Source: a virus | Lineage: Duplodnaviria > Caudoviricetes | Length of the DNA stretch: 52,855 bases | Virus record (IMG/VR): IMGVR_UViG_3300036820_000025 | Span: 1-52,855 of that record | Reading direction: 5' to 3' (one strand) | Shown: one piece after another, positions 36,800 to 50,850 of the stretch | Position numbering within the stretch: position 1 is the stretch's first letter | How the letters are laid out: each line of letters starts with the position of its first letter | Made by a program: the position numbers and the translations under genes | The notes under the pieces: model-generated | Told to the model about the DNA's origin: nothing | Databases searched by the model: none | The model's input: only the letters and a program-made list of their open reading frames with translations

Positions 36800-37813
36800 C
36801 TATTGCAACTGCGTGGTGGCGCGGTCGTTCACCACGACATCGGGGCCGGTACGTCCGGTGTCCACGATGGCGAGATGATTCGCGCGAATGTCAAGCATGC
36901 GGCCATCAAACGGTTTGCCGTCGATAACGCCCGAGTTCATCTCGGGGCGATAGTAGTAGCCGGGGCTCAGCTCCTGCTGCCGCTCCGACTCGATGGCCTC
37001 AATACCGGCGGAATCCCACACGGTCAGGTCGGCAACCAAATATGGCGCTTGCCAACGCACGTTGGAAACGGTGCCTATCATCAGCTCTTTCTGCGGACTG
37101 TCGGCACTCACGCCAACGTGGTGCATCATCAACGGTATGCGCTCGAACGTCGGCGCAGCAGCCGCGAGCGAAGCCGCGTCGCGATAAAGGTTGTACACGT
37201 GCTCGGCGTCGAGCCCGAGCTTTTCAGAGTCAGGAATCTCGCGGCCGAGGTACGGGCATATGTTGGCCTTGCTGATGCGGCAATCGCGCACATGCAGGTA
37301 GCCGTTCACGTCCTTGGAGCGGAGCGAGCCGCGGTCGAACGCCATGCGCGGCAGCTCGTCGTGCGCGGCCTTCGGTGTTCCCGCGGGAACATCGCCGCCC
37401 TCGTCTTCGCAATCGACCTCAAGCTCGCGCAGCGCGGCCTCCTCAAGCTCGACATCGGGGTCGCCGTCACGACCCCCGCGACGCGCCGCCTTGATGGCTG
37501 CAGCATTGCGAGAATTGAAATTCTGTAGTTCGGACATCGCCTGATCGTAGTCGCGTTTCGCGGCCCGGTAGGCATCGTCTTTTTTGTGTTCGGGGGTCAT
37601 CCCCATCGCGCCCCCGCCCGAGCGAGATTTTAGAGCGCGGCTTGCGTCCTGCATCTTGCGGTATAGCCGGTCCTGCTCATCGAGCACACCATCGCTCGCG
37701 CGGCGCTGCGAGTAGGCAATCGCCACGGCTTGACGCTGCGGCTTGCCGGCGTTTACCTCAACCTCGACGTTGTGAGAGAACGCGGCCTTAGACTTTCCTG
37801 ATTCGAGAGGCAT
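36800..37813 (-). CDS. Prohead protease (DUF2213) with N-terminal extension
   Basis: R..D.NG.LH....ISKAN.CPYLGREIP, ELS.GY.Y, NHLAIV..GR.G.DV.V.D. Confidence 0.88.
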   Translation of the reverse strand: MPLESGKSKAAFSHNVEVEVNAGKPQRQAVAIAYSQRRASDGVLDEQDRLYRKMQDASRALKSRSGGGAMGMTPEHKKDDAYRAAKRDYDQAMSELQNFNSRNAAAIKAARRGGRDGDPDVELEEAALRELEVDCEDEGGDVPAGTPKAAHDELPRMAFDRGSLRSKDVNGYLHVRDCRISKANICPYLGREIPDSEKLGLDAEHVYNLYRDAASLAAAAPTFERIPLMMHHVGVSADSPQKELMIGTVSNVRWQAPYLVADLTVWDSAGIEAIESERQQELSPGYYYRPEMNSGVIDGKPFDGRMLDIRANHLAIVDTGRTGPDVVVNDRATTQLQ

Positions 37814-37845
37814 GCCGCCATATTACGGCGGCACGTTCTGTTAAA

Positions 37846-39540
37846 TCAATCGTCACGCCCGGAGCTGTCGGGAACCTGCTTCAGCTCTTTGGCGCGACCG
37901 TGGGCGGCCTCGGCCGACTCCTCGCCGCGTTCGTGGTCCGCTTGCTTGCCTTGCTCGCCTAGCTCGGCGCCGACTTGCTGCTCCTGAATCTGCGGCGGGT
38001 CCGGCGCGTCGCCTTGCAGGTCGTCGTATCCGCTCTCGGGGTCGCGGCGCAGTTTGTCGCGTACCTCATCAGCGCTCACGATGCCGCCATTGACGAGCGC
38101 GACATCACGGTCAGCGTCCGACTTACGCAGGTCCGCAAGTTCCTTTGGCGTGGGTTCGTACAGCGACAGCCACTCGAACGTAATGTCGTCATCCACGGTT
38201 CCGAACAGGTCCATTTGCACGAGGTCAACAACGCGCTTCATATGCGGCGTGTAGCCGAGTTCCTGCAACGCATGCACGTAGTCGTACCACGCTTGGAACT
38301 CGCCGTCGCTCGTGGTGCTCAACCCCGTGGGCGTGATGCCGAAAAACTTGATAAGCGGCATGCGACCCGGAGTCGCCATGTGCTCCTGCGCCTGCGCCTG
38401 TAGCTTGTCGAGCGAGGCAAGCGATGCCTCGTTTACTGTTAGCTCCTCGGTGCTCTTGTTGATCGCGAGCAGGCCGCGGTTGTCGCGCTGTGCGACGAAA
38501 GCATCAAGGCGCTCTTTGAACTTACCCGGGTCCGACAGCAGCGCCTGCAAATCGGTCGCCAGCGTGAGCACTGAAAAAATGTTGATGAGGTCGTTAACAT
38601 TCTTCGCAGTGCGCAGCCACCGATTTACATACGGCATCATTAGCTGCGTCATGCTGATTCCCGCGAAATCGTAAGCGGGTTTCAACAGGTCGGGAACCTC
38701 GCGGAAAATGAACGTCATCAGCCGCGAGTGGTGCGTCTTTTTGCCGAGCACGAACCACGACTGCGGGCGGTAAAAATCGGGCTGCTCGGGCCGCAGCGAG
38801 TTCCACGAGTACGGCGTCAACCAATACGGCTCGATGCAGGTAAGCCCGAGCAACGTGCCTTGTTTGATAGTGGTCAGCGGTAGCTGTCGCGTGATGTCGT
38901 CGTCTTGGCCTTTGATCGACACGTAAATGTGCGAACGCCCGAACTGCTCCGTTTTTAGGGCAGCCTCGCGGAACAGGTCGCGTACGCGCAGCTCCTCAAG
39001 TCGCGCGTCGAGCTGCTTAATTTTCTCGGTACGTGCCTCGTCCTTGTCCGTGTCGATGTCCACGTCATCGGGCTCGGGCTGCTTCGCCTGCGCGGCTTTG
39101 CTGAGGTTCGACTTTTCGTTAGTCTCGCCCTTGCTCTTGAGCCGCAGCCATCGGCGCGTCATCTCGGTTGAGAGCGATTCCGCGGGCGTGCGGTACTCGG
39201 TAATCTGCGCCAGCTCGGCGAGATACGGGAACCCGAGAAATGCAAGCCCCGGCCCGAGCGCGCCGGAGCCAAGGCCGCCCCACGCAGCCGGCGCCCCGAG
39301 GTCCTGCGCCATGCGGCGCGTCTCGCCGCCGTGGTCCATCGCAAGTTTGAGCCCATCGCCTGACGGCAGCACAGTAGGCACCACGCCGGGCAACGGCGTA
39401 GGCATCACATATTCGCGCCGGCCATCGCCGACAGGGACTAGGGCGCGATCCCAGCGTATTGGCGTGGGTTTGGGGGCGGGGGCAGGGGCGGGGGCCGGCT
39501 GCGGAAACAGACGGCACCACAGACGGCGCAGGACGTTCAT
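37846..39540 (-). CDS. Portal protein (DUF1073 family)
   Basis: F.G.PYLAEL.Q..EYR, PDFY.P..W, H.SRL, PD.LKPAY.F.G.S, P..K..GITP.GL. Confidence 0.9.
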   Translation of the reverse strand: MNVLRRLWCRLFPQPAPAPAPAPKPTPIRWDRALVPVGDGRREYVMPTPLPGVVPTVLPSGDGLKLAMDHGGETRRMAQDLGAPAAWGGLGSGALGPGLAFLGFPYLAELAQITEYRTPAESLSTEMTRRWLRLKSKGETNEKSNLSKAAQAKQPEPDDVDIDTDKDEARTEKIKQLDARLEELRVRDLFREAALKTEQFGRSHIYVSIKGQDDDITRQLPLTTIKQGTLLGLTCIEPYWLTPYSWNSLRPEQPDFYRPQSWFVLGKKTHHSRLMTFIFREVPDLLKPAYDFAGISMTQLMMPYVNRWLRTAKNVNDLINIFSVLTLATDLQALLSDPGKFKERLDAFVAQRDNRGLLAINKSTEELTVNEASLASLDKLQAQAQEHMATPGRMPLIKFFGITPTGLSTTSDGEFQAWYDYVHALQELGYTPHMKRVVDLVQMDLFGTVDDDITFEWLSLYEPTPKELADLRKSDADRDVALVNGGIVSADEVRDKLRRDPESGYDDLQGDAPDPPQIQEQQVGAELGEQGKQADHERGEESAEAAHGRAKELKQVPDSSGRDD

Positions 39541-39554
39541 TCGCCGAGTGTACC

Positions 39555-40094
39555 CTAGGCGGGGATGCGGCGGCGAGTCGGGCAGTCCTTGCCGCGCGGA
39601 ATTGGCCCCGAGCCGTTGAATGAGCAGGCGCAGCCGATGCCGTGGCCCCACTCGCGGCCATCGTTGTGTGCGCCATCGTCGCCCCTGCGCGGCACTCTAG
39701 CCCGGGGCGCCAACGGAGCCCCGCCTAGCCGTTCGTGCAATTCCTGCGACTGCGCCAGCGCGCGCCAGCAATTCGCGTTGGCCTCATTGAGAATCAGGTC
39801 AACGAGCGCGTGAATGCTGCCGTCAGGAAGCATGACGGTATCCGCGCCGCGTTCGAGCAGCGCGAGCATGTCGGCCATGTCCATTTGATGCCGCGCGATG
39901 CAATCCGCGTGGTCGCTCGATTTGCCGCGCGCGTGGTGCATCTCCTCGCCCGGGTTGTGCTTGTCGTTGCCAGCCTTCGAGTGCTTCGCCACGCCAGCGA
40001 GCGCGGCCGGGAAGTAGCAATAGCAGCCGGTATGCACCGGCACATTTTTGCGGGCGGCACTGTCCCACGGTAGGGTTATCAGTTTCTCAGACAT
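39555..40094 (-). CDS. dATP/dGTP diphosphohydrolase-domain protein (DUF5664-like)
   Basis: RK..P...G...YFP.ALA.VA..S..GNDKHNPG...H..R.KS.DH.D...RH...WRALA..Q. Confidence 0.8.
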   Translation of the reverse strand: MSEKLITLPWDSAARKNVPVHTGCYCYFPAALAGVAKHSKAGNDKHNPGEEMHHARGKSSDHADCIARHQMDMADMLALLERGADTVMLPDGSIHALVDLILNEANANCWRALAQSQELHERLGGAPLAPRARVPRRGDDGAHNDGREWGHGIGCACSFNGSGPIPRGKDCPTRRRIPA

Positions 40095-40350
40095 TGCGGT
40101 ATCTCCAAGCCAGCGCGATCCACACCGTATTGCCGGCGACAATGAACAGGCCGCCAGTAAACGAGAGCCACTGCGCGAGATGAGGGTAATAAAACAGGTT
40201 CCAAAATCCCCACGAGGTAAAGAATGCTGTTGATTTCAGCGACACGCCGCGCGTGCAACGGTCGCGTGATATGCGGCGAACGTTGCCCCAAATCGCAACG
40301 CCGCCCCATCCCTCGAACAGCCCATTTATCAGGTCGGGCGTGTGGATCAT
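40087..40350 (-). CDS. PQ-loop/SemiSWEET-like three-TM membrane protein
   Basis: 87 aa, three hydrophobic helices, RD+..+GVS loop, WN..YY. Confidence 0.65.
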   Translation of the reverse strand: MIHTPDLINGLFEGWGGVAIWGNVRRISRDRCTRGVSLKSTAFFTSWGFWNLFYYPHLAQWLSFTGGLFIVAGNTVWIALAWRYRNV

Positions 40351-40985
40351 ACCGAGAGCGGGCGCAGCAGCCGGTACTCGGTTAGAAATCGGTCGTATGC
40401 CTCGCGCGGCTCCCAGCACCGTTGTAGGTCATACCGGCTCGTGCCCTCGTAGAGTTTCAGCGCGTAATCACGCATGCCGGGCTCGGGCTGCAGCCAATCC
40501 GCGGTGACATTGTGGCCGAGCAACTGTTCGGCTTCGATGTACAGCGCGCACCAATCGGCAAATTTGACGCCCGCGCTTACCGTGGGCGGCAAACCGAACT
40601 GCTCACGCATCGCGTGTTCGATTCGCGTCTCGAACGGCCGATAGTCCTTGACCGTGACTTTCCACGGGGCGGCCATGTCGGACACGTAGCCCTCGTGGGC
40701 GTCGTGCATCAGCCCCTCATAGGGCGTGCCGCCGCGCATAGCGATAGCCGGCTCATACATCAGCGTTGCGACGAGCACGCCATGCTGAGCGACGCTGTAG
40801 CGCCGCTGCACGTGGCCGGTAAACCGGCACTGCATCGAAGTCGCCCACGCCATTTCGCGAATATCGCATATGGGGCGCTGGCAGTAGAATTTGCGAGTGG
40901 CGAACCCGCCCTTATCGTCGGGGCGGATGGCAACGACGTATTGGTCGTCGCCGTCAGCCTCGTATGTCTCGGCTGCATTTTTCAT
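40347..40985 (-). CDS. HD-domain deoxynucleotide phosphohydrolase (YfbR/YfdR/DatZ-like)
   Basis: CRF.GH....YSVAQH, LMHDAHEGYVSD...P.K, VK.AD...L..E. Confidence 0.88.
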   Translation of the reverse strand: MKNAAETYEADGDDQYVVAIRPDDKGGFATRKFYCQRPICDIREMAWATSMQCRFTGHVQRRYSVAQHGVLVATLMYEPAIAMRGGTPYEGLMHDAHEGYVSDMAAPWKVTVKDYRPFETRIEHAMREQFGLPPTVSAGVKFADWCALYIEAEQLLGHNVTADWLQPEPGMRDYALKLYEGTSRYDLQRCWEPREAYDRFLTEYRLLRPLSV

Positions 40986-41006
40986 GTGTGCGTGCGGTCC
41001 TAGTTG

Positions 41007-42497
41007 TTAGAGCGGTGCGCGGTATTCCCCGTCGATGATGAACAGGAGCTGCCGCTTGTCGTTGGCATCGAGCGCGCAATGCGCCTGATGCCACGACGAC
41101 GGGCCGGCGTTGTACTCAAGCCGAAGCCCGGTAGACGTGCCGACCTGCGTGCAACCCTCGTCCTCACCCGGGCTGTGCGGGTGCCCGGTAATCGTCTTGA
41201 CGCCGATGCGGCGTAGATTGCGGATTGAGCCCCGCGCGCCGTTCGGGCCGCGGTTGCCGTGCATGCCAAGCTCGTGGGTGCCAAGCATAAAAGACTCGTC
41301 CTCGTCGAGTATTCGAGTCTGCGGCATGTTGTAGCGGCGCATCCAATATGTGAATGCGTTCGGGTACTCGGTGCCCTTGTTGGTCAGCTTGGTATTGCGG
41401 ACCATATGCAGCGCCGTCTCAAGATACCATTCGGCGTTGGTAGGGTCCTCGCGCCAATCGGCATCGACGATGTACCGCGTCAAAAAGTCATCGTGGTTAG
41501 AGGTAACAATCACGTTCTGCGTGTCTTTGATCGTGTGCGCTTCGATGAACCGGCGCAGCGACTCCAAGCTCGCGCGCACAGAATCGAGGCCACCAAAGCG
41601 CTTTGCCACGCGATTGAACGGATTGTGCTTATGATGCGGGTTGACCGGGTAACCATCCGTCGAATCGTGCAGTAGGATGTTCCGCGGGCGCAGAACGCCA
41701 ACCATGCCGCCTTGTCCGTATGTGGCGCGAATGACGCCCTTGTCGGTGAATGGGTCATGCCAATCCCCCGTGATGAGCCCGAGCGCGCGGGGCGCCTGTT
41801 GCACGCTGTCGGCGAAATACTGTTCGCCGCGCGCGGAATCAATCGCCGACTTCGAGCGGCCATCGAAATGAATGCGGCGCATGTGGAACCGCTTTTTATT
41901 GACGACTTCCACGAGGACGCACGACAACGAGTGATGAAACTGGCCCACGCGCCCGGCGCGCGTATCGCTGTAGTTCTCGACCGTGCAAGAGCCCGAGGTC
42001 ATCAAAATTTTCGCCATGCGATTCTGTGGCGTGGCGATGGTGCGCGTCTGAATCTTCGGGTGTGCAACTATCGCGCTGGCCGCGCCTGAGACGGCCTCAA
42101 AGCCCGTCAGCGGGTCCGCGGCCGTGGGCTGTATCTTGATGTCTCCGAGCAGCGTAAGGTTGTCGTTCAACGGCTGGCGCACATTGGCGAGAAACGGCCG
42201 CGTTTCCTTGGCCCAAAAATCCTTGCCTTCCTGCGAGCCGACCCAACGCGACGTGGGGTTTTTATAGCGCATCGGCAACACCACGAGGTCGGCCCCGCGG
42301 TGCTCGGCGATGCGCTGTAGTACGGCCCACCACTCCGCGTGTACCGGCGTCGAGTTCTGCGCGGCGACGACGAGCAGCGTTTTAACACGCTTGCCGAGGC
42401 GCCACGGGAAAATCGCTACGGGCGATTTGTCCTCGTAGAGCGGGTCATTCTCCCGCGTGAACGTGTCAAGGTTGCGGGGTGTCGTTGAATTGGTCAT
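41007..42497 (-). CDS. Calcineurin-like metallophosphoesterase (long, two-domain)
   Basis: GDWH, LHD..DG, SNHDD, MHG..G.NG.RG, TGHPHSP in the C-terminal half. Confidence 0.78.
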   Translation of the reverse strand: MTNSTTPRNLDTFTRENDPLYEDKSPVAIFPWRLGKRVKTLLVVAAQNSTPVHAEWWAVLQRIAEHRGADLVVLPMRYKNPTSRWVGSQEGKDFWAKETRPFLANVRQPLNDNLTLLGDIKIQPTAADPLTGFEAVSGAASAIVAHPKIQTRTIATPQNRMAKILMTSGSCTVENYSDTRAGRVGQFHHSLSCVLVEVVNKKRFHMRRIHFDGRSKSAIDSARGEQYFADSVQQAPRALGLITGDWHDPFTDKGVIRATYGQGGMVGVLRPRNILLHDSTDGYPVNPHHKHNPFNRVAKRFGGLDSVRASLESLRRFIEAHTIKDTQNVIVTSNHDDFLTRYIVDADWREDPTNAEWYLETALHMVRNTKLTNKGTEYPNAFTYWMRRYNMPQTRILDEDESFMLGTHELGMHGNRGPNGARGSIRNLRRIGVKTITGHPHSPGEDEGCTQVGTSTGLRLEYNAGPSSWHQAHCALDANDKRQLLFIIDGEYRAPL

Positions 42498-42810
42498 CGG
42501 CCTTCTGCTTTGCTCGTGCCTTCGCGGCAATCTTTGCGCTCGCGAACCAAATATGCTTCTTGCCGTCTGCGTTCTCACGCTTCACCACGACGATATGCGC
42601 GGCGAATTGGTCTCGAACTCGGGCAAGGTCCTTTGGCGCGCAGCGGATGCGTTTCTGCAGCTCGCTCTCGGCCTCGTACCATTCTGCGCCGAGCTTGAGC
42701 ATTTCAGCAAGCGCGGCCCGTATCTGCTGCGGGAGCTTCACGGCTTTGACGTGAGTCACGCCGAAAGTATCAAGCGAACGTGCGGGTGCGGTGTTTTTCT
42801 TAGCGGACAT
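42466..42810 (-). CDS. Small basic protein (possible DNA-binding)
   Basis: Lys/Arg-rich; tiled between the GNAT and phosphoesterase genes. Confidence 0.65.
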   Translation of the reverse strand: MSAKKNTAPARSLDTFGVTHVKAVKLPQQIRAALAEMLKLGAEWYEAESELQKRIRCAPKDLARVRDQFAAHIVVVKRENADGKKHIWFASAKIAAKARAKQKADDQFNDTPQP

Positions 42811-42817
42811 TGGTTGC

Positions 42818-43243
42818 TCACAGTGACAAACGGAAGTAGTGATAACGCTTGCCAGCGTATGGGGTCTCGGGTCGATAGAACGAGAACCCCTCGCGCAGCA
42901 GATTGACCATCGACGGATAGTTTTGCAGCGTTGTATAGGTGCGAATTTCTTCGGCCCCCTGCCACCATCCCCAAAACACGCGATGAGCTATCAGCCGGCG
43001 CTGTAAATGTTGCCCTTGATACTTCGCGACGACAGCAGCGCGCGATAGGAAAACATAGGGCTTGTCGCCCTCGGGGGCGCGAAATATCGCCGACGCAAAC
43101 CCCACGGTGCGGTTGCCGGCGTCGGGGTCGCGCGCGACCCAAAACGTATGATCGTCGCCGACCCATTTGTCAGCCTCGAATGCGAGGTCATGCAGCACGC
43201 GCGCCGAGTCGATGTCGTCGAGCCTGCGCACCGTAATTGTCAT
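42818..43243 (-). CDS. GNAT N-acetyltransferase
   Basis: VGFA, FLSRAAV..KYQGQHLQRRLI (AcCoA-binding motif A), N.PS..NL...GF. Confidence 0.85.
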   Translation of the reverse strand: MTITVRRLDDIDSARVLHDLAFEADKWVGDDHTFWVARDPDAGNRTVGFASAIFRAPEGDKPYVFLSRAAVVAKYQGQHLQRRLIAHRVFWGWWQGAEEIRTYTTLQNYPSMVNLLREGFSFYRPETPYAGKRYHYFRLSL

Positions 43244-44055
43244 TCTTCAATCCCCGGGATGATTGCGCGGCTCGTGCAGCGGCAGTTGATAAGCTGGCCC
43301 GGCAAAACGAACTCTTTTTCGTCGGGGTCCCACATGCCTTTGGCGAGGTCGAAAATTTTATTATTCATCTCGACGTGTGCGGGCCGGGGCTCTTTGCCGC
43401 CGTGCGAGTGCTGCCATATGGCCTGCCGGATGCCGAGCTGCTGCCGGCGCGTGTTCTCAATAGTGGCCTTGGCCTTCGCGTTTTGATCGCGCGAGATGAG
43501 CGCGGCGCGGCGCACGGTCACGCCATACTGTTGCCGGAGCTTCACCGACAGCGCCGACATATCGCTGCCGCGCTGCACGGACTGCCACACGAGCGACTGT
43601 ACGTTCGTCAGGTACTGCTGCGGAATCGAGCGTATAAGCCCCACGTTCTCAGCGATGACAGAGCGGTAGGCGTCCATGCTCGCGCGCGTGGGCTTGAACT
43701 GCACCGTAAACCCGGCGTCACGCAATGCGGCCTTGAATGAGGTCTCGGCCGCGGCGAAATTCTTTGTAGCGAATTGCTTCGCAATCTTCGGCGCGAGCGC
43801 ATCGAACTTTCGCGCCCAGCGGTCGCCCCACATCTTAAGCCGCTGTTTAATCGAAGCGACGCCCGCGTCGTGCGCGAGCTGCTGCACGACTTTCGGTGTT
43901 CCCACGGGAACAACAGGCCACGCGGGCGCAAGCATAAGCATTAGCTCTTGGTGCGCCTGCTGTAGCTGTGCGTCGAGTTGGTCGTGATACCAAACAGCCA
44001 CCCCCGCGTTTGGTTGTATCGCGTGGACTGTCTTTAGAATGCGACGGGCCGGCAT
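43240..44055 (-). CDS. Minor head protein (MuF / SPP1 gp7 family)
   Basis: ENVGLIRSIP, RAALISRDQN.KA, W.HS...EPR..H, PG.LINCRC. Confidence 0.9.
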   Translation of the reverse strand: MPARRILKTVHAIQPNAGVAVWYHDQLDAQLQQAHQELMLMLAPAWPVVPVGTPKVVQQLAHDAGVASIKQRLKMWGDRWARKFDALAPKIAKQFATKNFAAAETSFKAALRDAGFTVQFKPTRASMDAYRSVIAENVGLIRSIPQQYLTNVQSLVWQSVQRGSDMSALSVKLRQQYGVTVRRAALISRDQNAKAKATIENTRRQQLGIRQAIWQHSHGGKEPRPAHVEMNNKIFDLAKGMWDPDEKEFVLPGQLINCRCTSRAIIPGIEE

Positions 44056-44063
44056 GGGTGCGG

Positions 44064-44093
44064 AGCCTACTGTAACGCTGACGCTGCCGTCAA
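44064..44093 (-). promoter_or_regulatory. Sigma70-like promoter with operator overlapping -35
   Basis: TTGACG-gcagCGTCAGcgttacag-TAGGCT, near-identical in layout to 5144-5115; operator at 44079-44092. Confidence 0.72.
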
Positions 44094-44317
44094 TCCCCGG
44101 GCGACCGGGCGACGTGTGCGCGATAATTGCCATTGCCAATGTCTGCTTTTCCTGCTAGGAAATCGCCCCACGAGGAGCTGCCCCCGGCGACCCTGTGCCG
44201 ACGCAACCGGGCGCGCTGGCGGTCCTTGCACGAGCAGGGCGGCGCTACGCCCTTGCGCGCGTCGGGGTCGTTGTCGAGCGAAACGGCGCAATCGGGGTCG
44301 TGCACAAAACGCTTCAT
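44090..44317 (-). CDS. Small hypothetical protein (H..C...CxC)
   Basis: ATGA coupling to the terL stop. Confidence 0.5.
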   Translation of the reverse strand: MKRFVHDPDCAVSLDNDPDARKGVAPPCSCKDRQRARLRRHRVAGGSSSWGDFLAGKADIGNGNYRAHVARSPGD

Positions 44318-46059
44318 ATAACCGCCATAATTTCAGGGCCAAAGTTCAGCGCCGGGCGCGAGTAACCGAACGCCATCATTACCGCGTCAGCCATATTCGG
44401 CGACGCCATGCCGTCGGGGGTTTTATCAATCATCAGCTTGCCATTTTTCGACCACGTGCGCGTGGGCTGTGCAAGCTCCGTTTCGAGCAGGCCGATAGCA
44501 ACTATCTTCGGGTTGATGATGATGACCTCATCGGGGTTGAACTTCTCGCCGTTCAGTCCCTTATAAACCTCGACAAACCGCATGCGCGTACACATCCACG
44601 ACTGCGCTTTGAGATTTTCATAGTAGTCCTTGTTGGTGCGATCCGAGCCCGGCGCGCGTGCGTCCGGGTCCTCGACCGCGCCGCCGCCTTGGAATTTCTG
44701 CACGAGGATAGGTTTTTGCCCGTTGGCTTTACGCTCCTCGTTCACCATCGCAAAGTATTCATGCCACGAGCCGCCCATGCCCGAGGCATCGTAAACGAGC
44801 CGCTTGCAGCCGTATTTGTCGCAGATAGAAAACGCGCGGCGAATCGACTGCATGGGGTTCGAGTTATTGCCCGACCATTGCTCGACGTGGTGCAGCTCGA
44901 CGCCGTGCCGGATCGCTACCGCATTTTTGTCGGTGCCTAGGTCGGCCACGTCGTAAGTTGCGACCCACTCGCCCGAGGGCGTGATGCCGAGTTTTTCACC
45001 CGCGCCTATCGCTGCGTGTATATGCACAGCCTCGATGACGCCGCCCTCGATGGACGCAAGGAAATCGCAGCCATACTCTTGGTTAAAAATTACCTCGTCC
45101 ATATCGTAGACGTGCTTGGCAAACTCGTGCGTAAAATCGCCTATGCCCACGTGCGCGATGTGCCGGCCGTCCTCGGTCGTCGTAACTTTCAGGCGCTTGC
45201 CGGCGCGGATTTTCTCGGCGTCCTCGGCGTTGAGTTCTATGTCGTAGGGCTCGCCTTGGTTGACTTTGGTCGGGTCGTCGCGGTAGCTGAAATCAAACCG
45301 TGGGATGAGGCCGCCGCGCGCATGTTCGGCAAAGACGTTGTTCACACCGCGCACCGTGGACATTTCGAGGCGCGTGTCGGTGTTGGCTGATAGGTTTGTC
45401 TCGATGAGCTTTGGCCGCTCGATGACTGCGTACTCGTCAACAAAAAACATCGAGGTTCGACCGCCAACGCCGATGTTATCGCCCGCGCCGCCCACGATGG
45501 CCGACTCGGTATTCGGATAGAGCAGGCGCATTTGCGCGCTGTGTTTCTTTGGGTCGTAGCCGGGCTTAAAGATTGCCGGCAGGTATTTGAGAAAGGTTCG
45601 GCCCTTGTAGAATAGGCAAGTAGGGTCGCCGCTCTTATCGACGAACTCCTCCTTTGCCGAGCCGAACCCAATTGTTAGGTTATCCCAAAACAGCGAGAGC
45701 GTAACGCTAATCGCCATCGCCATCCACGAGGCGCCGCACTCGCGCGACTTTACTAGCACGCCATTTTCGTGACGACGCCAACGCGCGATAACCCAATCAA
45801 CAAATTCGCGCTGCTTCGGGTAGAGCAGAAACGGCATGATGATAGGGCGCCCGCGCGTAGCGTTTTTCGGATTGACCGTGACGCCCCAATCTTGAATAAA
45901 GTCGGCCACGTGGTCGCGGTACCACATACGCGCGGCGACTAGTTTCTCCGGGTCGCTCTCAAGCTCTATCAGCTTGCGTTCGCGCTGCAGCCATATCTCA
46001 GTATAGGCCGCGGTCGGGTTGAGCCAATCGAAGCCCGCCGGGATTTTGATGAGTGACAT
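44314..46059 (-). CDS. terL: Terminase large subunit
   Basis: PF.L.P.Q, KSRECGASW, GRT...FVDE, DVAD.G.DKNA, SPNMADA. Confidence 0.93.
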   Translation of the reverse strand: MSLIKIPAGFDWLNPTAAYTEIWLQRERKLIELESDPEKLVAARMWYRDHVADFIQDWGVTVNPKNATRGRPIIMPFLLYPKQREFVDWVIARWRRHENGVLVKSRECGASWMAMAISVTLSLFWDNLTIGFGSAKEEFVDKSGDPTCLFYKGRTFLKYLPAIFKPGYDPKKHSAQMRLLYPNTESAIVGGAGDNIGVGGRTSMFFVDEYAVIERPKLIETNLSANTDTRLEMSTVRGVNNVFAEHARGGLIPRFDFSYRDDPTKVNQGEPYDIELNAEDAEKIRAGKRLKVTTTEDGRHIAHVGIGDFTHEFAKHVYDMDEVIFNQEYGCDFLASIEGGVIEAVHIHAAIGAGEKLGITPSGEWVATYDVADLGTDKNAVAIRHGVELHHVEQWSGNNSNPMQSIRRAFSICDKYGCKRLVYDASGMGGSWHEYFAMVNEERKANGQKPILVQKFQGGGAVEDPDARAPGSDRTNKDYYENLKAQSWMCTRMRFVEVYKGLNGEKFNPDEVIIINPKIVAIGLLETELAQPTRTWSKNGKLMIDKTPDGMASPNMADAVMMAFGYSRPALNFGPEIMAVI

Positions 46060-46097
46060 AACGGGCCGGGAGCCTAGCAGACTGTGATGCAGTCGTG

Positions 46098-46125
46098 TTG
46101 ACGCCGCCGTCAGTTTTGGTATCGT
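46098..46125 (+). promoter_or_regulatory. Promoter with operator overlapping -35
   Basis: TTGACG (46098-46103), 16 nt, TATCGT; TGACG-ccgc-CGTCA at 46099-46112; a TGTGA half-site at 46083. Confidence 0.68.
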
Positions 46126-46154
46126 AGCGCTCAGGGTTTAGGAGGGTTCACAAC

Positions 46155-46301
46155 ATGATGATTCGCAAATGGCAGAACAGCGCAGCGCGCCGCCGGGCGC
46201 ACGCCAAGTTTCGCCGCCATCTCTGCCGCCTGCTCGGTTGCCCGTTCGAGAGCTGCTACACCACGGGCGAGCTGCTGCGCGACGCGAGGGCTGCACGATG
46301 A
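46155..46301 (+). CDS. Small basic Cys/His protein, 48 aa (not in ORF track)
   Basis: AGGAGG SD; MMIRKWQNSAARRRAHAKFRRHLCRLLGCPFESCYTTGELLRDARAAR; ATGA coupling to the next gene. Confidence 0.65.
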   Translation: MMIRKWQNSAARRRAHAKFRRHLCRLLGCPFESCYTTGELLRDARAAR

Positions 46302-46690
46302 ACAAGACGCAAGCTATAGCCGCCATGCTCAAACTCGTGGGCAAGCGGGTTAATTATCGCTATGACGAGAGCGCCCCCAAGGCCGAGGAGCGCGAGGAGC
46401 TGCACGCCAAACTGCCGGCGCTGCAGGCTGCTCGGGACGCCACGCGGACAGCGATGGACCAACGCATTAAGGACCTGCTCGCAGGCGATGCCGAATACCA
46501 GCGCCTGCGCGCCGAAGCAGCAGCCGCGCGCAAGGCCGCTGCCGACGCTTCAAGCCGAGCACGCCACTACCGCGTGACCATCGGCGATAGTAGCGACGGA
46601 TTCTGCAACCTCATTCTAGCCGAGGGCGACAACTGGCAAGACGCCATCGACAAGCTGAAAATCGCAGTCACACGGACACGCGCACGATGA
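46298..46690 (+). CDS. Coiled-coil hypothetical protein
   Basis: ATGA coupling at both ends. Confidence 0.7.
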   Translation: MNKTQAIAAMLKLVGKRVNYRYDESAPKAEEREELHAKLPALQAARDATRTAMDQRIKDLLAGDAEYQRLRAEAAAARKAAADASSRARHYRVTIGDSSDGFCNLILAEGDNWQDAIDKLKIAVTRTRAR

Positions 46691-46974
46691 GCCTACTATC
46701 ACGCATCGCCGGGCTGTTCCGCCGATTCCCCGAGCTGGACATCAAGACGGCCGCGGGGCGGGACCTCGACCGCCTCGCAGGGCTCAAGGAGCGCCCCGCG
46801 GGCATGACCGACGCAACCCTGCGCAGCCTCGCCATAGCCGACGAGCCGGCCCCGTGCGTCATTTGCGGGCAGATGGCAAACCCGCCGTTTTGGGTCGAAC
46901 GCCCGTTGCCGTTTCACGGAATCGAACGCGGCGGCCCTTACTGCTTCCCGCACTGGCCGGGGCGGGCGTACTGA
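46687..46974 (+). CDS. Hypothetical protein (CxxC...CxxH)
   Basis: Operon tiling. Confidence 0.6.
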   Translation: MSLLSRIAGLFRRFPELDIKTAAGRDLDRLAGLKERPAGMTDATLRSLAIADEPAPCVICGQMANPPFWVERPLPFHGIERGGPYCFPHWPGRAY

Positions 46975-47159
46975 TGAGCCGCCGTATCAAACGCCGCAAG
47001 TCGCAGCAGTTCCGCGAGAGGCGGCGCCGATTCAACGCCGCGCGCGAGGAACTGCGCAGCATGATGCAAGCCGAGATATTGAAGCTACTACGCGACGAGG
47101 CGAAGGCCGCGATTCTGCGGTATCAGGACAAGGGCGCGCAGGCCCGGGCGGCGGCGTAA
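46974..47159 (+). CDS. Small basic hypothetical protein
   Basis: TGATG and TAATG coupling. Confidence 0.55.
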   Translation: MSRRIKRRKSQQFRERRRRFNAAREELRSMMQAEILKLLRDEAKAAILRYQDKGAQARAAA

Positions 47160-47515
47160 TGCCGCGCCCCACGGCCGCCGAGCTGACGGTGCAGTGCCGC
47201 GAGAGCGCGCTGCGCGAGGGCGCGCTGCGCGAAGCCCTTAACCTGATGGTCAACGACAAACCCGCGGCCGTCGAGCGCGTCCGTATCGCAGTAGGCGAGC
47301 GGTACGAGCTGCGGCTGTACGGCCCGCAGCGCGCCCACGGGGGCGTGGTCGTAACCGTGCATTATGTGAAGGGCCAGCGGGCCTACGTGGACGCCGACTA
47401 CCTCGACGCGCTCGCGCGGCGCTGGCGCGGGCATCATCCGGTAGGCGGCGCGTTCGAGCGGCTGGCCGTCACACGTGACAGAATCGTGAACGGGGTCACA
47501 ACGCCAAAAACGTGA
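47159..47515 (+). CDS. Hypothetical protein
   Basis: TAATG coupling; ends at the next promoter. Confidence 0.6.
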   Translation: MPRPTAAELTVQCRESALREGALREALNLMVNDKPAAVERVRIAVGERYELRLYGPQRAHGGVVVTVHYVKGQRAYVDADYLDALARRWRGHHPVGGAFERLAVTRDRIVNGVTTPKT

Positions 47516-47553
47516 CGCGGGTCCTAGAAAACTGACGCGCGCGTCAGTATACT
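47485..47553 (+). promoter_or_regulatory. CRP/Clp-like class II promoter with operator and second upstream CRP-like site
   Basis: CGTGA-acgggg-TCACA (47485-47500); CGTGA-cgcggg-TCCTA (47511-47526); perfect palindrome ACTGACGCGCGCGTCAGT (47531-47548); -10 TATACT (47548-47553). Confidence 0.8.
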
Positions 47554-47591
47554 GGCCTCACTGAATAACGGAACGGATGAGGTCTCGCACC

Positions 47592-48059
47592 ATGAACAAG
47601 TTTGAAGCCGGCAAGTCATATTGGACCCGCGGCATCTGCGACCATGACTGCATCTACACATGCGCCCATGACTGCATCTACACAATCGCCGTCGTCTCGC
47701 GCACTGCCAAGACGGTCAAGATTCAGGACAACCGCGGCGAGCGCACGCTGCGCGTGTTCATCGACTACAACGGCCACGAGGCTGTCAAGCCGCACGGCTC
47801 CTACTCAATGGCCGCCATCATCAGCGCGGACGACGAGGGCAGCGGCCCCGCCCCGCGCCCGGAGCCGGCCTCGGTGCTCAAGCGCCCCACGATGACGCCG
47901 GCCGAGATGGTCGAAGCCTGCGCGCTGTCGATGGGCGACGCTAACGTGCAGCTTAAGGTCAACACGGCTAGCGGCTCGGTATGCCTGCCGAACGGCTCGC
48001 AGTGGCTCTACGACAGCCGTTTCGGCCATTGGGCTTGCACCCGGGGGCCGCGGTCATGA
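47592..48059 (+). CDS. Hypothetical protein with in-frame 8-aa tandem duplication
   Basis: GAGG SD; F..GK.Y..R..CDHDC....V.RTAKTV. Confidence 0.7.
   Translation: MNKFEAGKSYWTRGICDHDCIYTCAHDCIYTIAVVSRTAKTVKIQDNRGERTLRVFIDYNGHEAVKPHGSYSMAAIISADDEGSGPAPRPEPASVLKRPTMTPAEMVEACALSMGDANVQLKVNTASGSVCLPNGSQWLYDSRFGHWACTRGPRS
47637..47684 (+). repeat. 24-bp tandem duplication
   Basis: TGCGACCATGACTGCATCTACACA / TGCGCCCATGACTGCATCTACACA (1 mismatch). Confidence 0.95.
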
Positions 48060-48256
48060 GCGTGCAGGAATGGAAAGCCGAAATAGCCAACCGCGAGATA
48101 CGCGACCGACTCGCAGCGTACGAGGCGCGAGGTTATGACGTGTCTTGCACATCGACCGCGCGCCGCGTAGTAATGTGCCGCGTCGCCGAGCAACTATCGA
48201 ATTTAGGGATTCTATGCCTAGTCAAGAGCACAACACAATTGATCGTGTTTCCGTGA
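48056..48256 (+). CDS. Hypothetical protein
   Basis: ATGA coupling (MSVQEWKAEI...). Confidence 0.55.
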   Translation: MSVQEWKAEIANREIRDRLAAYEARGYDVSCTSTARRVVMCRVAEQLSNLGILCLVKSTTQLIVFP

Positions 48257-48408
48257 GCTGGCGCTGCCACGCGCATCCCGCCCACATGGACGGAGAAACC
48301 TGCGGCCACGTGAACGAGAACGGCGGCACCGTACACAACGACCTCGTATGTTGCGAGCGCTGCGGCTGCACGTGGACAGCGAGCGAGCACCGGAGGCGGG
48401 CAGAATGA
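48253..48408 (+). CDS. Small Zn-finger-like protein
   Basis: GTGA coupling; WRC...CGH.N...CERCG. Confidence 0.55.
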   Translation: MSWRCHAHPAHMDGETCGHVNENGGTVHNDLVCCERCGCTWTASEHRRRAE

Positions 48409-48617
48409 CGGCGCCTGTTCGCCGTTCACGGCAGCACCGCGCAGCGTTCGATGCCTCCGGGCTCACGGAGCGCGCCCGGTCATTCATCCGCGCGCAGGTC
48501 GCGCTCAATGACGGCGATGTCGAGCGCGTGGTGCGCTACTTCAGCCGAACCCTACGCTTTGCGCGCGCCGACGTGTGCCGCGCGATGGTAGTTGCAGCAA
48601 CGGAGCCGCAGCGATGA
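48405..48617 (+). CDS. Hypothetical protein
   Basis: GGAGG SD and ATGA coupling. Confidence 0.6.
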   Translation: MTAPVRRSRQHRAAFDASGLTERARSFIRAQVALNDGDVERVVRYFSRTLRFARADVCRAMVVAATEPQR

Positions 48618-48805
48618 GCCTAGAGGACTACTGCGCACACAACGAGCGACGCGCGGCGCCGGGCAAACCCTTCGAGTGCGTTGATTTCTACATCGACCCT
48701 GCCGAGGGCATAGTGCTTGTCGAGCATACGTTCGAGACTGCGGCCGAGCGCGATGCGTACGTGTTCCGCCATTTCGGCATCCGCGTAGGGCTCGCGCATG
48801 GGTAA
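48614..48805 (+). CDS. Small acidic hypothetical protein
   Basis: GGAG SD and ATGA coupling. Confidence 0.6.
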   Translation: MSLEDYCAHNERRAAPGKPFECVDFYIDPAEGIVLVEHTFETAAERDAYVFRHFGIRVGLAHG

Positions 48806-48977
48806 AGCCACTCGCCTTGCAGAACGTCGCGCGCGCCTTGAACGCTATCGGGCTGCGCGCTCGGCGTCGATGGACAACGCGCGATGCTACGAGCCGGGCA
48901 ACGAGTGGCGCGCGCAGTGGGTGCGTGTCGCTCGCGAGATGCACGCGCGCTTGATGGCGCGGCTACGCGCTACCTAA
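48798..48977 (+). CDS. Small Arg-rich protein, 59 aa (not in ORF track)
   Basis: MGKATRLAERRARLERYRAARSASMDNARCYEPGNEWRAQWVRVAREMHARLMARLRAT; 8-nt overlap with the upstream gene. Confidence 0.5.
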   Translation: MGKATRLAERRARLERYRAARSASMDNARCYEPGNEWRAQWVRVAREMHARLMARLRAT

Positions 48978-48984
48978 CGACTGC

Positions 48985-49242
48985 TCACTGCACGGTAATC
49001 GTAACGCTGTTCGACTGCGCGCTCGCGACGCCCTCGGCGTTGTACGCCTGCATGGGCGGCGCTGGCGTGGGGAATATCTGCGGCCCGGGCGTTGGGTGCG
49101 CTGTCCACGGTGCAGGAGCTGCCGCAGTCGGAGGCGGGGCGCTCGAAGTCGGCGCGCTAGGGCTCTGCGTCGTCGTGGTGTGATCCCCGCACGCTACGAG
49201 CGCGAGGCATGCGAGGGCAACGGCAAGTGTGCGGCGTGTCAT
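48985..49242 (-). CDS. Small Pro/Thr-rich lipoprotein
   Basis: MTRR + hydrophobic core + LVAC lipobox. Confidence 0.7.
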   Translation of the reverse strand: MTRRTLAVALACLALVACGDHTTTTQSPSAPTSSAPPPTAAAPAPWTAHPTPGPQIFPTPAPPMQAYNAEGVASAQSNSVTITVQ

Positions 49243-49279
49243 AACGTGACAGCGTGCGCACGCAGCGAACGTTGCGCAA

Positions 49280-49322
49280 CGTGACGCAAATCACAGACGC
49301 GCCGCGCGGCCGGCAGTACAGT
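49280..49322 (+). promoter_or_regulatory. CRP/Clp-like class II promoter with degenerate operator
   Basis: CGTGA-cgcaaa-TCACA (49280-49295), 21 nt, TACAGT (49317-49322); the operator position reads CCGCG-cggc-CGGCA. Confidence 0.72.
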
Positions 49323-49328
49323 ACGCAC

Positions 49329-49520
49329 ATGGACGCAGCACGCAGCAACCGCAAATATCCCTCCTACACGCTGGCCGACCTTGAGCGTTTTGTCGCCGAG
49401 GGGCAGGGCACGCCTTCGATGGTGCAGGAGATTGCCGACCGCAAGGCCGGGCGCAGTGTCACGCTGGTAACGCCGCAGCTCCTCGGCGGGCGCCCCGTCG
49501 TCAAGGTCGGCCGCCTGTGA
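49329..49520 (+). CDS. Small hypothetical protein (probably leaderless)
   Basis: ATG 6 nt after the -10; GTGA coupling to the next gene. Confidence 0.65.
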   Translation: MDAARSNRKYPSYTLADLERFVAEGQGTPSMVQEIADRKAGRSVTLVTPQLLGGRPVVKVGRL

Positions 49521-49813
49521 AACGCATCGCCGAGTACGTGCATGTGCCGGCGCCCGGCTCGCCGCTGCTCGACACGCGACTCGGCGCGTACTACGTGAGC
49601 GTGCAGGACGGCAAGCGCACGGCGCTACTCGCTGGCCCGTGGCCGACGCATCGCGAGGCGCTTGACATGGTGGATACGGTGCGCGCGCTGGCGCAGTCGC
49701 TCGACCCGCGCGGCGCGTTCTACGCTTTCGGCACTGCGCGGCTGCCGGACGACGACAGCGTGCCGCTACGCTATGGCTCGCTCAACGCGCAGCTTGGCTT
49801 GCCGTACCGCTGA
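49517..49813 (+). CDS. Hypothetical protein
   Basis: YYVSV.DG.R..LLAGP..TH.EAL...DP...FY.FGTA pattern; coupled start. Confidence 0.7.
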   Translation: MKRIAEYVHVPAPGSPLLDTRLGAYYVSVQDGKRTALLAGPWPTHREALDMVDTVRALAQSLDPRGAFYAFGTARLPDDDSVPLRYGSLNAQLGLPYR

Positions 49814-49920: not shown

Positions 49921-50850
49921 TCACTGCGACATTTCGAGATAGATGCGCGCCGCGGCTTCGGGCGTCATCTCGCGCGTGATCTTCGCGAGGCGCTTGGATG
50001 CAGCGACGCCAGCCATAGCGCCCGCTACCGCGCCACGGGCGACGCTGGCGGCATCGTCACCAAACGCCCCAGCCGCGCGATACAGGCGCTCTGCGGCCTT
50101 GTCCGGGTCGCGGGTGCGGTATTTGATGCCGTTGTTTGTTTGCTCGACGCCCATATACAGCGCTCGCACGTTCGGCGATAGGTGGCGCGTGTCAGCAAAC
50201 ACTGCGCGCTGTTCCCCGAGGCCGCCGCACACTGCGCACCCCGGGTGCGGCTCGCGGTTGCGGTCGAAGCCATATCCGCCCTCATCGCTCGGCAACGGTG
50301 CTTGGCGGGTGTGCTTCTCAACAGCGATGGCGTTGTCGTCCATGACCTTGGCGAGCGCGGCGATGTACTCGGCTGCGTCGCGATACTGGTACGCATGGTT
50401 GGTGCCGTGGCAATAGCGACAGCACGACCACACGTAACCGCTAAGCTCCTCGACGTGCTCGGCTGCGCGCACGATAGCGCGGTCTCGTTCCAACAGCTCG
50501 GCAACGTCGATGACCGCAAGGCGCGCGGCTTCGGATTCGAGTTCGGCAACACGCTTGCGCACCCACGGGCGGTTACTGACTTGGCAACCTTTCGTCCACG
50601 ACACGTTGAGCTGCGCATCGCGCTTGCCGTAGACCTCTCGCCATGCCTTCGCCTTGTTGCGGCATGCAACGTAGCGCTGCGCGAACAGCTCCTCGCGCGG
50701 CGTGCATTCGCGCCAGCCGGCGAGCTGCGTTCCCGCGGGAACCGACGGCGCAGCTTGCAACGCCAACGCGCCAGCGCTGCCCGAGGTTGCGGCAGGTTCG
50801 GCGGGCGGCGTCTCGGGGGCGGGCGCGGCGGTTTCCGTAAGCAATTCCAT
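49921..50850 (-). CDS. terS: Terminase small subunit with Zn-finger insertion
   Basis: TPREE.F...Y....N...A.R..Y HTH; CCRYCHG...YQY...GGYGF....P.P.CxxCxGxG...DT. Confidence 0.82.
   Translation of the reverse strand: MELLTETAAPAPETPPAEPAATSGSAGALALQAAPSVPAGTQLAGWRECTPREELFAQRYVACRNKAKAWREVYGKRDAQLNVSWTKGCQVSNRPWVRKRVAELESEAARLAVIDVAELLERDRAIVRAAEHVEELSGYVWSCCRYCHGTNHAYQYRDAAEYIAALAKVMDDNAIAVEKHTRQAPLPSDEGGYGFDRNREPHPGCAVCGGLGEQRAVFADTRHLSPNVRALYMGVEQTNNGIKYRTRDPDKAAERLYRAAGAFGDDAASVARGAVAGAMAGVAASKRLAKITREMTPEAAARIYLEMSQ

Follow-up and report, generated by a model that had tools for sequence, protein, structure and literature searches.

A six-gene cassette around a T5 A1 homologue in a myophage head operon: a proposed module for host-DNA demolition and deoxynucleotide disposal

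What are six tightly packed genes, apparently directed at nucleotides, doing among the head genes of a tailed phage? The question is raised by positions 39555-43243 of IMG/VR record IMGVR_UViG_3300036820_000025 (Duplodnaviria; Caudoviricetes), a record that is complete at 52,855 bp (CheckV completeness 100; ~62% G+C), the whole of which we refer to as the window. An earlier note on this DNA listed genes for a GNAT acetyltransferase, a basic protein, a calcineurin-like phosphoesterase, an HD deoxynucleotide hydrolase, a PQ-loop/SemiSWEET-like membrane protein and a DUF5664-like diphosphohydrolase, and suggested that together they make or import a modified, possibly acylated, nucleotide and remove its canonical competitor, in partnership with an altered DNA polymerase. 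The explanation that we favour, with moderate confidence, is a different one: the cassette would be an accessory module, spread by horizontal transfer, that demolishes host DNA and disposes of deoxynucleotides; it would resemble the system of phage T5, be assembled from partly non-homologous parts and be lodged in a cargo hotspot of the head operon.

That the six genes are co-directional and tightly coupled between the genes for MuF and portal, as the earlier note had it, is borne out by the map of start and stop codons. In the direction of transcription the minus strand carries the large terminase, a MuF-like protein, the six cassette genes, the portal and the prohead protease. The MuF and GNAT genes share a 4-nt ATGA overlap, and 7 nt separate GNAT from the basic-protein gene. 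The latter overlaps the phosphoesterase gene by 32 nt if the phosphoesterase starts at M28 (position 42497), and a 21-nt gap then leads to the HD gene. A second 4-nt ATGA overlap joins HD to the membrane-protein gene, which overlaps the DUF5664-like gene by 8 nt; the DUF5664-like gene in turn overlaps the portal gene by 16 nt. Every overlap or gap of the six genes is thus at most 32 nt.

The six cassette genes and their products

The gene that anchors the cassette (41007-42497, minus strand; longest open reading frame (ORF) to 42578) encodes a metallophosphoesterase of the T5 A1 family, 496 aa long when read from M28. The homology extends over the full length: BLASTP against T5 A1 gives 27% identity over 478 aa (E 2e-49), and PHROG 1745 (‘DNA transfer protein’) is matched with an E-value of 9e-127 over profile positions 82-540 of 542. 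Pfam returned nothing at E<=0.1, Metallophos included, and sequence and profile searches of the PDB gave no match. In an alignment of 29 homologues residues D245, H247, H277, D278, D281, N334, H335, H413, H439 and H441 are invariant, and we take these positions to be the classic metallophosphoesterase motifs. The calcineurin-like phosphoesterase of the earlier note therefore keeps its metallophosphoesterase-type residues and is refined to a T5 A1 homologue, albeit one that Pfam does not recognise. The family is large: tblastn matches it in 1132 phage records, and a set of 861 homologues at E<=1e-10 consists mostly of proteins of ~490 aa.

What T5 A1 does is described in passages of a recent preprint (bioRxiv 10.64898/2026.04.02.716235). 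There A1 is reported to be necessary and sufficient in vivo for degradation of the host chromosome, and the resulting deoxynucleoside monophosphates (dNMPs) are dephosphorylated by Dmp to nucleosides, which are then excreted. A2 is a DNA-binding protein that is required, with A1, for second-step DNA transfer; the escape of T5 DNA from A1 is described as unexplained, and A1 as ‘predominantly associated’ with Demerecviridae. Given the homology to T5 A1, we propose that the window's protein is a candidate host-DNA degradation factor.

The gene directly upstream (42466-42810, minus strand) encodes a protein of 114 aa that is indeed basic, with an isoelectric point (pI) of 9.9, as the earlier note held, and that matches no Pfam or PHROG family. 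Its fold is predicted to be a winged helix: an AlphaFold2 (AF2) model built with 21 homologues (predicted local distance difference test (pLDDT) score of 85.4) has the order helix-strand-helix-helix-strand-strand, and in a VIA structure search winged-helix domains made up all 50 matches listed, with Z of only 5.1-6.8. We considered the protein as a relative of T5 A2 (PHROG 1725) and rejected this: BLASTP gives an E-value of 0.53, there is no PHROG match, and A2 does not appear in the BFVD list. A predicted complex of the A1 homologue with the winged-helix protein reached scores of 0.14 and 0.05, short of the mark of 0.32, which is uninformative either way on binding. By analogy of position, the protein may be a nucleic-acid-binding partner of A1 that stands where A2 stands in T5.

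Downstream of the A1 homologue lies the gene for an HD-domain phosphohydrolase of the Atu1052/YfbR-like group (40347-40985, minus strand; 212 aa; PHROG 318, E 2e-40). Searched singly against the PDB, the sequence matches 2gz4 (E 8e-11). A profile of 15 family members retrieves Atu1052 (2gz4, E 9e-33) and then Lin2634, with 3mzo at 2.7e-5, and among characterised structures the 5'-deoxynucleotidase YfbR comes nearest (2paq, E 1.1e-4; 2par, 4.7e-3); OxsA follows at 0.03 and DatZ (6zpa) at an E-value of only 0.45. Across the 15 sequences H68, H94(-D95), E98, D103 and D144 show little or no variation, in the pattern H...HD..E....D...D, with HE in place of HD in three family members; we take these residues to map onto the metal ligands of YfbR. 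Both the fold and the residue pattern are common to E. coli YfbR (2paq), Agrobacterium Atu1052 (2gz4) and the window's protein, Atu1052 being a close relative that is itself without an assigned function. Homologues are spread over 268 phage records of diverse kinds. We also tried the protein as a homologue of T5 Dmp and rejected it (BLASTP E 0.23), the two falling into different PHROGs, 415 for Dmp and 318 for the HD protein. Of the earlier note's HD deoxynucleotide hydrolase of DatZ type, then, the HD family stands and the DatZ type finds no support. On its kinship with YfbR the protein is a putative dNMP 5'-nucleotidase.

The next gene (40087-40350, minus strand) encodes a membrane protein of 87 aa with three helices, which has 135 homologues of similar length. 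Its AF2 model (pLDDT 94.6; helices 4-30, 38-58 and 61-83) has a SemiSWEET-like fold. In a Foldseek search of the PDB SemiSWEETs fill the top places (4rng, template modelling (TM) scores 0.83/0.87, root-mean-square deviation (rmsd) 1.7 A), followed by the mitochondrial pyruvate carrier, SWEET, cystinosin and the KDEL receptor. VIA ranks 4qnc first (Z 11.3, rmsd 1.7, 81/81 residues), where helical bundles commonly reach Z below ~13, and 4qnd second. Viral models labelled ‘PQ loop repeat’ or ‘SemiSWEET’ are matched in BFVD with TM scores of 0.8-0.89, and an Atlas feature search places the protein at 0.95 to a viral ‘MtN3/saliva’ cluster. Among 32 family members Pfam PQ-loop (PF04193) is matched by none and MtN3_slv (PF03083) by one, below the cut-off (E 0.029); nor did the family profile find a SemiSWEET in the PDB. 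Taking the PQ motif to lie in helix 1, as we assume, the dipeptide is missing from the family alignment, which has N or H there, ahead of a basic loop and ‘GVS’; the corresponding residues are WGNVRR. The label PQ-loop/SemiSWEET-like given by the earlier note thus finds support in structure and in the Atlas but not in Pfam. The bacterial SemiSWEETs (4qnc, 4rng, 4x5m) share with this protein a length of ~87 aa, three membrane helices and the same bundle, but the window's protein is without the PQ motif and is neighboured by nucleotide enzymes rather than sugar genes. From its modelled fold, we propose that it may transport a small molecule, perhaps a deoxynucleoside. A search of titles and abstracts found no phage SemiSWEET or PQ-loop protein linked to nucleosides.

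The last cassette gene before the portal (39555-40094, minus strand; 179 aa from MSEK), whose tail overlaps the portal start, encodes a divergent DUF5664-like protein (PHROG 27780, E 4e-32). It is ~50% identical to 33L of phage Xp10, which itself passes Pfam PF18909 (51.6 bits, E 9.7e-14). An hhalign comparison with canonical DUF5664 yields an in-register alignment of low significance (E 1e-3, probability 21%), and neither the protein nor either DUF5664 alignment matched anything in the PDB. The dATP/dGTP diphosphohydrolase of the earlier note accordingly stands as a family call, by way of Xp10 33L, while the protein's own Pfam score lies below the cut-off. According to part of a recent study (PMC12884076), Arthrobacter phage Wayne has a DUF5664 protein that turns dATP, dUTP and dGTP into dNMPs, and DUF5664-like proteins are also present in phages with canonical DNA. 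By family membership, the window's protein is a putative pyrophosphohydrolase of deoxynucleoside triphosphates (dNTPs). As a side observation, Xp10 33L (NC_004902.1, 27408-28175) and its relatives in Xanthomonas, Stenotrophomonas, Sphingomonas and SIO1-like roseophages are DUF5664 members annotated as ‘hypothetical’; these genes lie in replication modules, with no A1 gene within the stretch examined.

Finally, the gene that opens the cassette (42818-43243, minus strand; 141 aa) does encode a GNAT acetyltransferase, as the earlier note stated (Pfam Acetyltransf_1, E 2.8e-5, 24.8 bits against a cut-off of 20.7). A tblastn search of 50,697 phage records gave no match, and the best PDB match has an E-value of 0.44.

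Recurrence of the gene set

An alignment of 29 A1 homologues, used as the query, retrieved viral loci at 44-69% identity, of which the best 80 of 241 confirmed were analysed by scoring each family on their ORFs with jackhmmer; a single A1 protein as the query had retrieved nothing. The winged-helix gene is the most constant partner of A1 and lies directly upstream of it in 27 of these 80 loci. DUF5664 of one type or the other is present in 46, mostly just downstream of A1: the window type in 26 and the canonical type in 20, and both together in none, so that in genomic role the window type matches canonical members. When neighbours were clustered without bias, the winged-helix gene and both DUF5664 types ranked first. 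HD is found in 16 loci, in 11 of them on the A1 strand between A1 and DUF5664 and in the others elsewhere in the flank. DUF4406, a family of the same clan as the nucleoside deoxyribosyltransferases, occurs in nine, adjoining DUF5664 in seven of the nine (Pfam-checked in L063 and L071), close to it in the others, and never together with HD. The membrane gene is present in four, always beside HD. Neither T5 A2 nor T5 Dmp was detected in any of the 80. A GNAT of the window's type occurs in three (L056, L063, L112), always touching A1 or its partner; it is a rare add-on and a non-conserved companion.

In roughly ten A1 loci (e.g. L041, L042, L078, L079 and L084) the order is portal-MuF-winged-helix-A1-(HD)-DUF5664-protease, which indicates that the same head-operon gaps of related phages receive the module. 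The nearest A1 relatives, L039 and L040, have the terminase-MuF-...-A1 order of the window, with other small genes at the GNAT position.

Several further genes keep company with A1 in these loci. At L040:2954-3277 and L039:5435-5770 a small ORF resembling MazG, with a Pfam MazG match under the cut-off (E 0.0095), stands between MuF and the gene for the A1 partner; another small MazG-like ORF is at L065:7431-7961. A protein of ~150-230 aa with the N-terminus ‘...IAYRDG.IAADTR’, presumably resembling that of HslV/proteasome-type Ntn hydrolases, is encoded near A1 in 15 of the 80 loci, often just 5' of the winged-helix gene (e.g. L039:6186-6638, L064:6406-6960, L092:6251-6778); it has no Pfam match at E<=0.01, and the window is without it. 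A pair of DUF6899 (Pfam E 8e-27) and DUF4406 genes stands directly 5' of DUF5664 in seven loci, e.g. L071:8502-9217 and L063:8483-9733.

Centred on the membrane gene instead (the best 80 of 169 confirmed loci), the picture is one of linkage to HD, which lies within 5 kb in 19 loci and forms the largest neighbour cluster (18). DUF5664 is found in 12, and a third DUF5664 type in five, one of which was checked (Pfam E 2e-12). Gene orders vary in this sample, from A1-membrane-HD-DUF5664 to HD-membrane-A1-DUF5664 and winged-helix-A1-HD-membrane. Loci in which the order is shuffled and the neighbours are kept include L074, L108, L082, L122, L129 and L132.

Relatives of the window's own head operon, retrieved around the portal gene, comprise 32 loci and 564,653 bases. 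The order terminase-portal-(gap)-MuF-(gap)-protease is seen in 28 of the 32; in L005, L006 and L035 the protease directly follows the portal, as in the window, and L009 breaks off beyond the portal. Just upstream of the portal, L005 and L006 have the end of an A1 gene, with one canonical DUF5664 between the two (Pfam E 2e-20 and 1.4e-20). Both loci with an A1 fragment therefore have DUF5664, and none of the 30 related loci without A1 has any of the cassette families. The complete relatives G003, G004 and G005 are without A1 and, like the provirus G007, also without PF18909 and the HD family. In the relatives, unrelated small genes occupy the gaps between portal and MuF and between MuF and protease (L007:6742-7080, L008:10379-10717, L024:7124-8365, L014:13186-15559), and one such gap holds a gene for a 413-aa DUF5710 protein, which suggests that these gaps are general cargo hotspots of the head operon.

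The gene set also occurs in an isolate. Microcystis phage Mwe-JY26 (PP438418.1, 18380-22316) carries HD, two unassigned genes, GNAT, the membrane gene and A1 between helicase and polymerase. As in the window, the cassette genes are co-directional on one strand and include HD (hhalign probability 99.8%), a GNAT (Pfam E 3e-11), an 87-aa membrane protein and A1 (31% identity, E 7e-68), all annotated ‘hypothetical protein’. Unlike the window, Mwe-JY26 has another gene order, within a replication module, and no DUF5664 was detected in the stretch examined; a 217-aa gene considered for that role was ruled out by hhalign. Its GNAT is unrelated to that of the window by BLASTP and was found in none of the 160 loci. 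In Atu_ph03 and Xoo-sp13, as in Mwe-JY26, the A1 gene is located in a replication or early region; the 223-aa genes 3' of A1 in Atu_ph03 and Xoo-sp13, tried as HD homologues, are not HD homologues. At the DNA level, a search of phages with the cassette returned a single 100-nt match, within an A1 gene.

The cassette is, then, a real, recurrent and mobile gene module: its families recur together, shuffled, in many unrelated viral contigs as well as in Mwe-JY26, which bears out the earlier note's view of a nucleotide-directed six-gene unit. We found no description of the A1-DUF5664-HD association in the literature searched on DUF5664 and on A1 and T5.

A proposed route of demolition and disposal, and its rivals

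From these relationships we infer the functions of the cassette as a whole: it would be a T5-type system with non-orthologous enzymes and a possible exporter. The A1 homologue and its winged-helix partner would degrade the host chromosome, as the homology to T5 A1 suggests. The DUF5664-like enzyme would convert dNTPs to dNMPs and pyrophosphate, a reaction shown for another DUF5664, and the YfbR-like HD enzyme would strip the 5'-phosphate to leave deoxynucleosides; dNMP destruction may fall to DUF4406 in other phages, as it does to Dmp in T5, in place of HD. The SemiSWEET-like protein might then pass the uncharged products across the membrane. Homology to characterised proteins underlies the three chemical steps, and the fold together with tight linkage to HD underlies the transport step. 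GNAT is an occasional add-on. The net effect would be removal of the host DNA and of the deoxynucleotide pool derived from it, shutting off the host and competitors and perhaps clearing away dNMP danger signals; no new base would result.

The comparison with the pre-early A1/A2/Dmp region of T5 (NC_005859, 124-4134) is instructive in both directions. A1 is homologous over its full length; in T5 and in the window a small-protein gene precedes A1 and a dNMP-directed phosphatase gene (putative in the window) follows it in the same transcription unit; and T5 has, beside A1, a gene for a small two-helix membrane protein (T5.005). The T5 chemistry runs from DNA to dNMP to deoxynucleoside, which is excreted. 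The window differs in having an HD phosphatase instead of Dmp, an upstream protein unlike A2, and additional DUF5664-like and SemiSWEET-like proteins. It has no terminal repeats, and its cassette sits among the head genes of a 53-kb myophage rather than in a first-step-transfer region.

If this reading is right, its reach goes beyond the window. Destroying host DNA and discarding the nucleotides has so far been treated as a peculiarity of T5-like phages, and here an A1 homologue turns up in a small myophage as well as on hundreds of further viral contigs, as part of a portable package in which a conserved winged-helix protein and a changing choice of putative nucleotide-destroying enzymes accompany A1. 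Control of A1, or protection of phage DNA from it, is a candidate role for the winged-helix protein. The HD-linked SemiSWEET-like protein is a candidate exit route for the breakdown products, and an efflux-channel role, if true, would be the first function for many viral PQ-loop/SemiSWEET proteins. Annotations could be sharpened as well: ‘DNA transfer protein’; ‘hypothetical protein’ for the genes of Mwe-JY26 and Xp10 33L; and ‘deoxyribonucleoside 5' monophosphate phosphatase’, a label of PHROG 318, a family that excludes T5 Dmp.

Several observations count against demolition and disposal as the function of the cassette. The winged-helix protein has no similarity to T5 A2, and the HD protein is non-homologous to T5 Dmp. 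The DUF5664-like protein scores only 19.2-19.4 bits (E 1e-3) against PF18909 (dGTP_diPhyd_N), below the cut-off of 27. Ribonucleotide reductase, thymidylate synthase and dNMP kinase were not found in the phage; since it would thus have no deoxynucleotide synthesis of its own, draining dNTPs would be at the expense of phage replication, barring some limit by timing or specificity. T5 A1 is a pre-early gene, but the structural operon that houses the cassette looks late. In the T5 preprint the in-vitro nuclease activity of A1 is still to be tested (bioRxiv 10.64898/2026.04.02.716235). HD is in only 16 and the membrane gene in only four of the 80 A1 loci, and A1 in only three of the 80 membrane-gene loci, so that the exporter step is no obligatory part of an A1 system. 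Moreover, the samples hold near-duplicates (L082/083, L101/102, L116/117, L050/052, L136-143), and the counts ignore phylogeny.

The modified-nucleotide pathway of the earlier note, which we regard as very unlikely, does have parallels. According to part of a recent study (PMC12884076), HD (DatZ) and DUF5664/MazZ-type enzymes clear canonical dATP and dGTP in Z-genome phages, and a DUF5664 and NDT-like pair supports base exchange in PurZ0 phages. The window shares an HD phosphohydrolase and a DUF5664-family enzyme with the Z phages, which combine PurZ with DatZ, MazZ/DUF550 and DUF5664; DUF4406 accompanies DUF5664 in nine of the 80 A1 loci, and a transporter-like protein and a GNAT are present. 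But the window has no PurZ, its HD protein scores better against YfbR than against DatZ, and the partner and anchor of these enzymes is a putative DNA-degradation factor. Over the complete record PurZ (PF00709), thymidylate synthase/hydroxymethylase (PF00303) and TGT/DpdA (PF01702) were all missing, models that matched control genomes in 14/14, 10/14 and 14/14 cases, respectively, so the note was right that no PurZ, DpdA or hydroxymethylase gene is present; nor did the ORFs scanned hold another candidate base-synthesis gene. The altered polymerase is present at 54-60% identity in all three complete relatives that lack the cassette (G003, G004, G005) and is a lineage trait independent of it. 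The note had itself counted genes unlinked to the polymerase variant as evidence against its proposal, and this is in part what is found. Acylation gains little from a GNAT that occurs in three of the 80 A1 loci and to which the GNAT of Mwe-JY26 shows no detectable relation. New base chemistry is, in sum, not supported by the cassette. It is distinctly unlikely, too, that the six are independent accessory genes, nucleotide-pool sanitisers and the like, which merely share an insertion hotspot. DUF5664-like genes do occur without A1 (e.g. Xp10 33L in its replication module), HD homologues are spread over phages of many kinds, and 77 of the 80 membrane-gene loci lack A1; against this, the families co-recur in several gene orders on unrelated backbones, are absent from all 30 related loci without A1, and are joined throughout the cassette by start/stop overlaps. 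Packaging of the products in the capsid, for ejection with the DNA and action at entry, would suit genes inside a head operon with translational coupling to MuF, as well as the annotation of A1 as a ‘DNA transfer protein’ and the requirement for T5 A1 in second-step DNA transfer stated in passages of the T5 preprint. We consider it very improbable: A1 lies in replication or early regions of Atu_ph03, Xoo-sp13 and Mwe-JY26, the relatives' gaps around MuF hold unrelated small genes, as a cargo hotspot predicts, and a polytopic membrane protein would hardly be expected to ride in a capsid.

A rival closer to demolition and disposal keeps the same chemistry and changes the selective reason, in a more concrete form of the earlier note's alternative of countering nucleotide-based defences: HD, the DUF5664-like enzyme and export would accompany A1 chiefly to wipe out nucleotides that signal danger, such as N6-methyl-deoxyadenosine monophosphate (m6dAMP) set free from methylated host DNA, or other nucleotide messengers of immunity, and so keep the defences that sense them silent. 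Passages of two preprints (bioRxiv 10.1101/2025.11.05.686725, 10.64898/2026.01.15.699771) report that the Metis and PUA-Cal-HAD defences are triggered by m6dAMP from phage-driven degradation of the host genome, and that MisB, a HAD phosphatase of the host, silences the signal by dephosphorylating m6dAMP to m6dA. Such defences suggest one reason for discarding nucleotides and, on the evidence of those passages, give a concrete selective reason for a nuclease and dNMP-destroying enzymes to travel together; known or putative dNMP-destroying enzymes of three unrelated folds do accompany A1, namely the HAD-type Dmp in T5, HD in 16 and DUF4406 in nine of the 80 loci. On the other hand, Metis and PUA-Cal-HAD still protect against T5, a Dmp carrier, according to the same passages, so that a dNMP phosphatase alone is evidently insufficient to blind them in those set-ups; Dmp goes unmentioned in the passages of both preprints; and specificity for m6dAMP has no support in our analysis. 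As the main purpose of the module, counter-defence is in our judgement unlikely. Equally tentative, and doubtful in its full form, is the idea of a pipeline from nuclease to exporter, in which the SemiSWEET-like protein would be an efflux channel for deoxynucleosides (or for base and deoxyribose) and the interchangeable HD, DUF4406 and Dmp enzymes would chiefly remove danger signals of the m6dAMP type before Metis or PUA-Cal-HAD fire.

The surrounding operon and other features of the record

The PHROG matches of the record are those of a contractile-tailed phage (sheath, baseplate, tail fibre, major head protein, protease, portal, terminase) with a T7-like replication set of primase-helicase, DNA polymerase A, gp2.5-like single-strand-binding protein, exonuclease and helicases. 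An NCBIfam search gave nothing useful. At the upstream end of the operon lies the large terminase gene (44314-46059, minus strand; PHROG 2, E 4e-17; weak Pfam Terminase_6N), followed by that for the MuF-like head morphogenesis protein (longest ORF 43240-44139, minus strand; Pfam Phage_Mu_F, E 1.3e-13; PHROG 324, E 2.8e-63). The MuF start is probably the ATG at 44055, since relatives align from about residue 26-41 of the longest ORF. At the downstream end, the portal gene (37846-39540, minus strand; Pfam Phage_portal_3, E 2.3e-67) probably starts at 39540, M38 of its longest ORF, and its relatives align from residue 31-42.

An operator-bearing promoter that the earlier note had placed upstream of the cassette, at 44064-44093, did not emerge. 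It is absent from a consensus scan, in which 37500-46500 holds two sites compared with 2.8 +/- 1.5 in shuffled sequence, and inverted repeats of at least 8 nt are absent from 43990-44330. Most of the terminase-MuF spacer, in which that site lies, is occupied by a possible 75-codon basic ORF (44090-44317, minus strand; pI 9.6; G+C at third codon positions 0.75), which has an ATGA overlap with the terminase stop codon.

Elsewhere in the record, the sole small-terminase-like ORF (49921-50850, minus strand; PHROG 51, E 1.2e-12) lies ~4 kb from the large terminase, separated from it by small plus-strand genes of unknown function (46169-49813). In the tail region, a 29-nt segment at 25938-25966 matches a piece of the A1 gene (query 1267-1294) with 93% identity, probably by chance. 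The replication region includes a gene for a DUF1643 protein (5596-6093, minus strand; Pfam E 1.4e-25).

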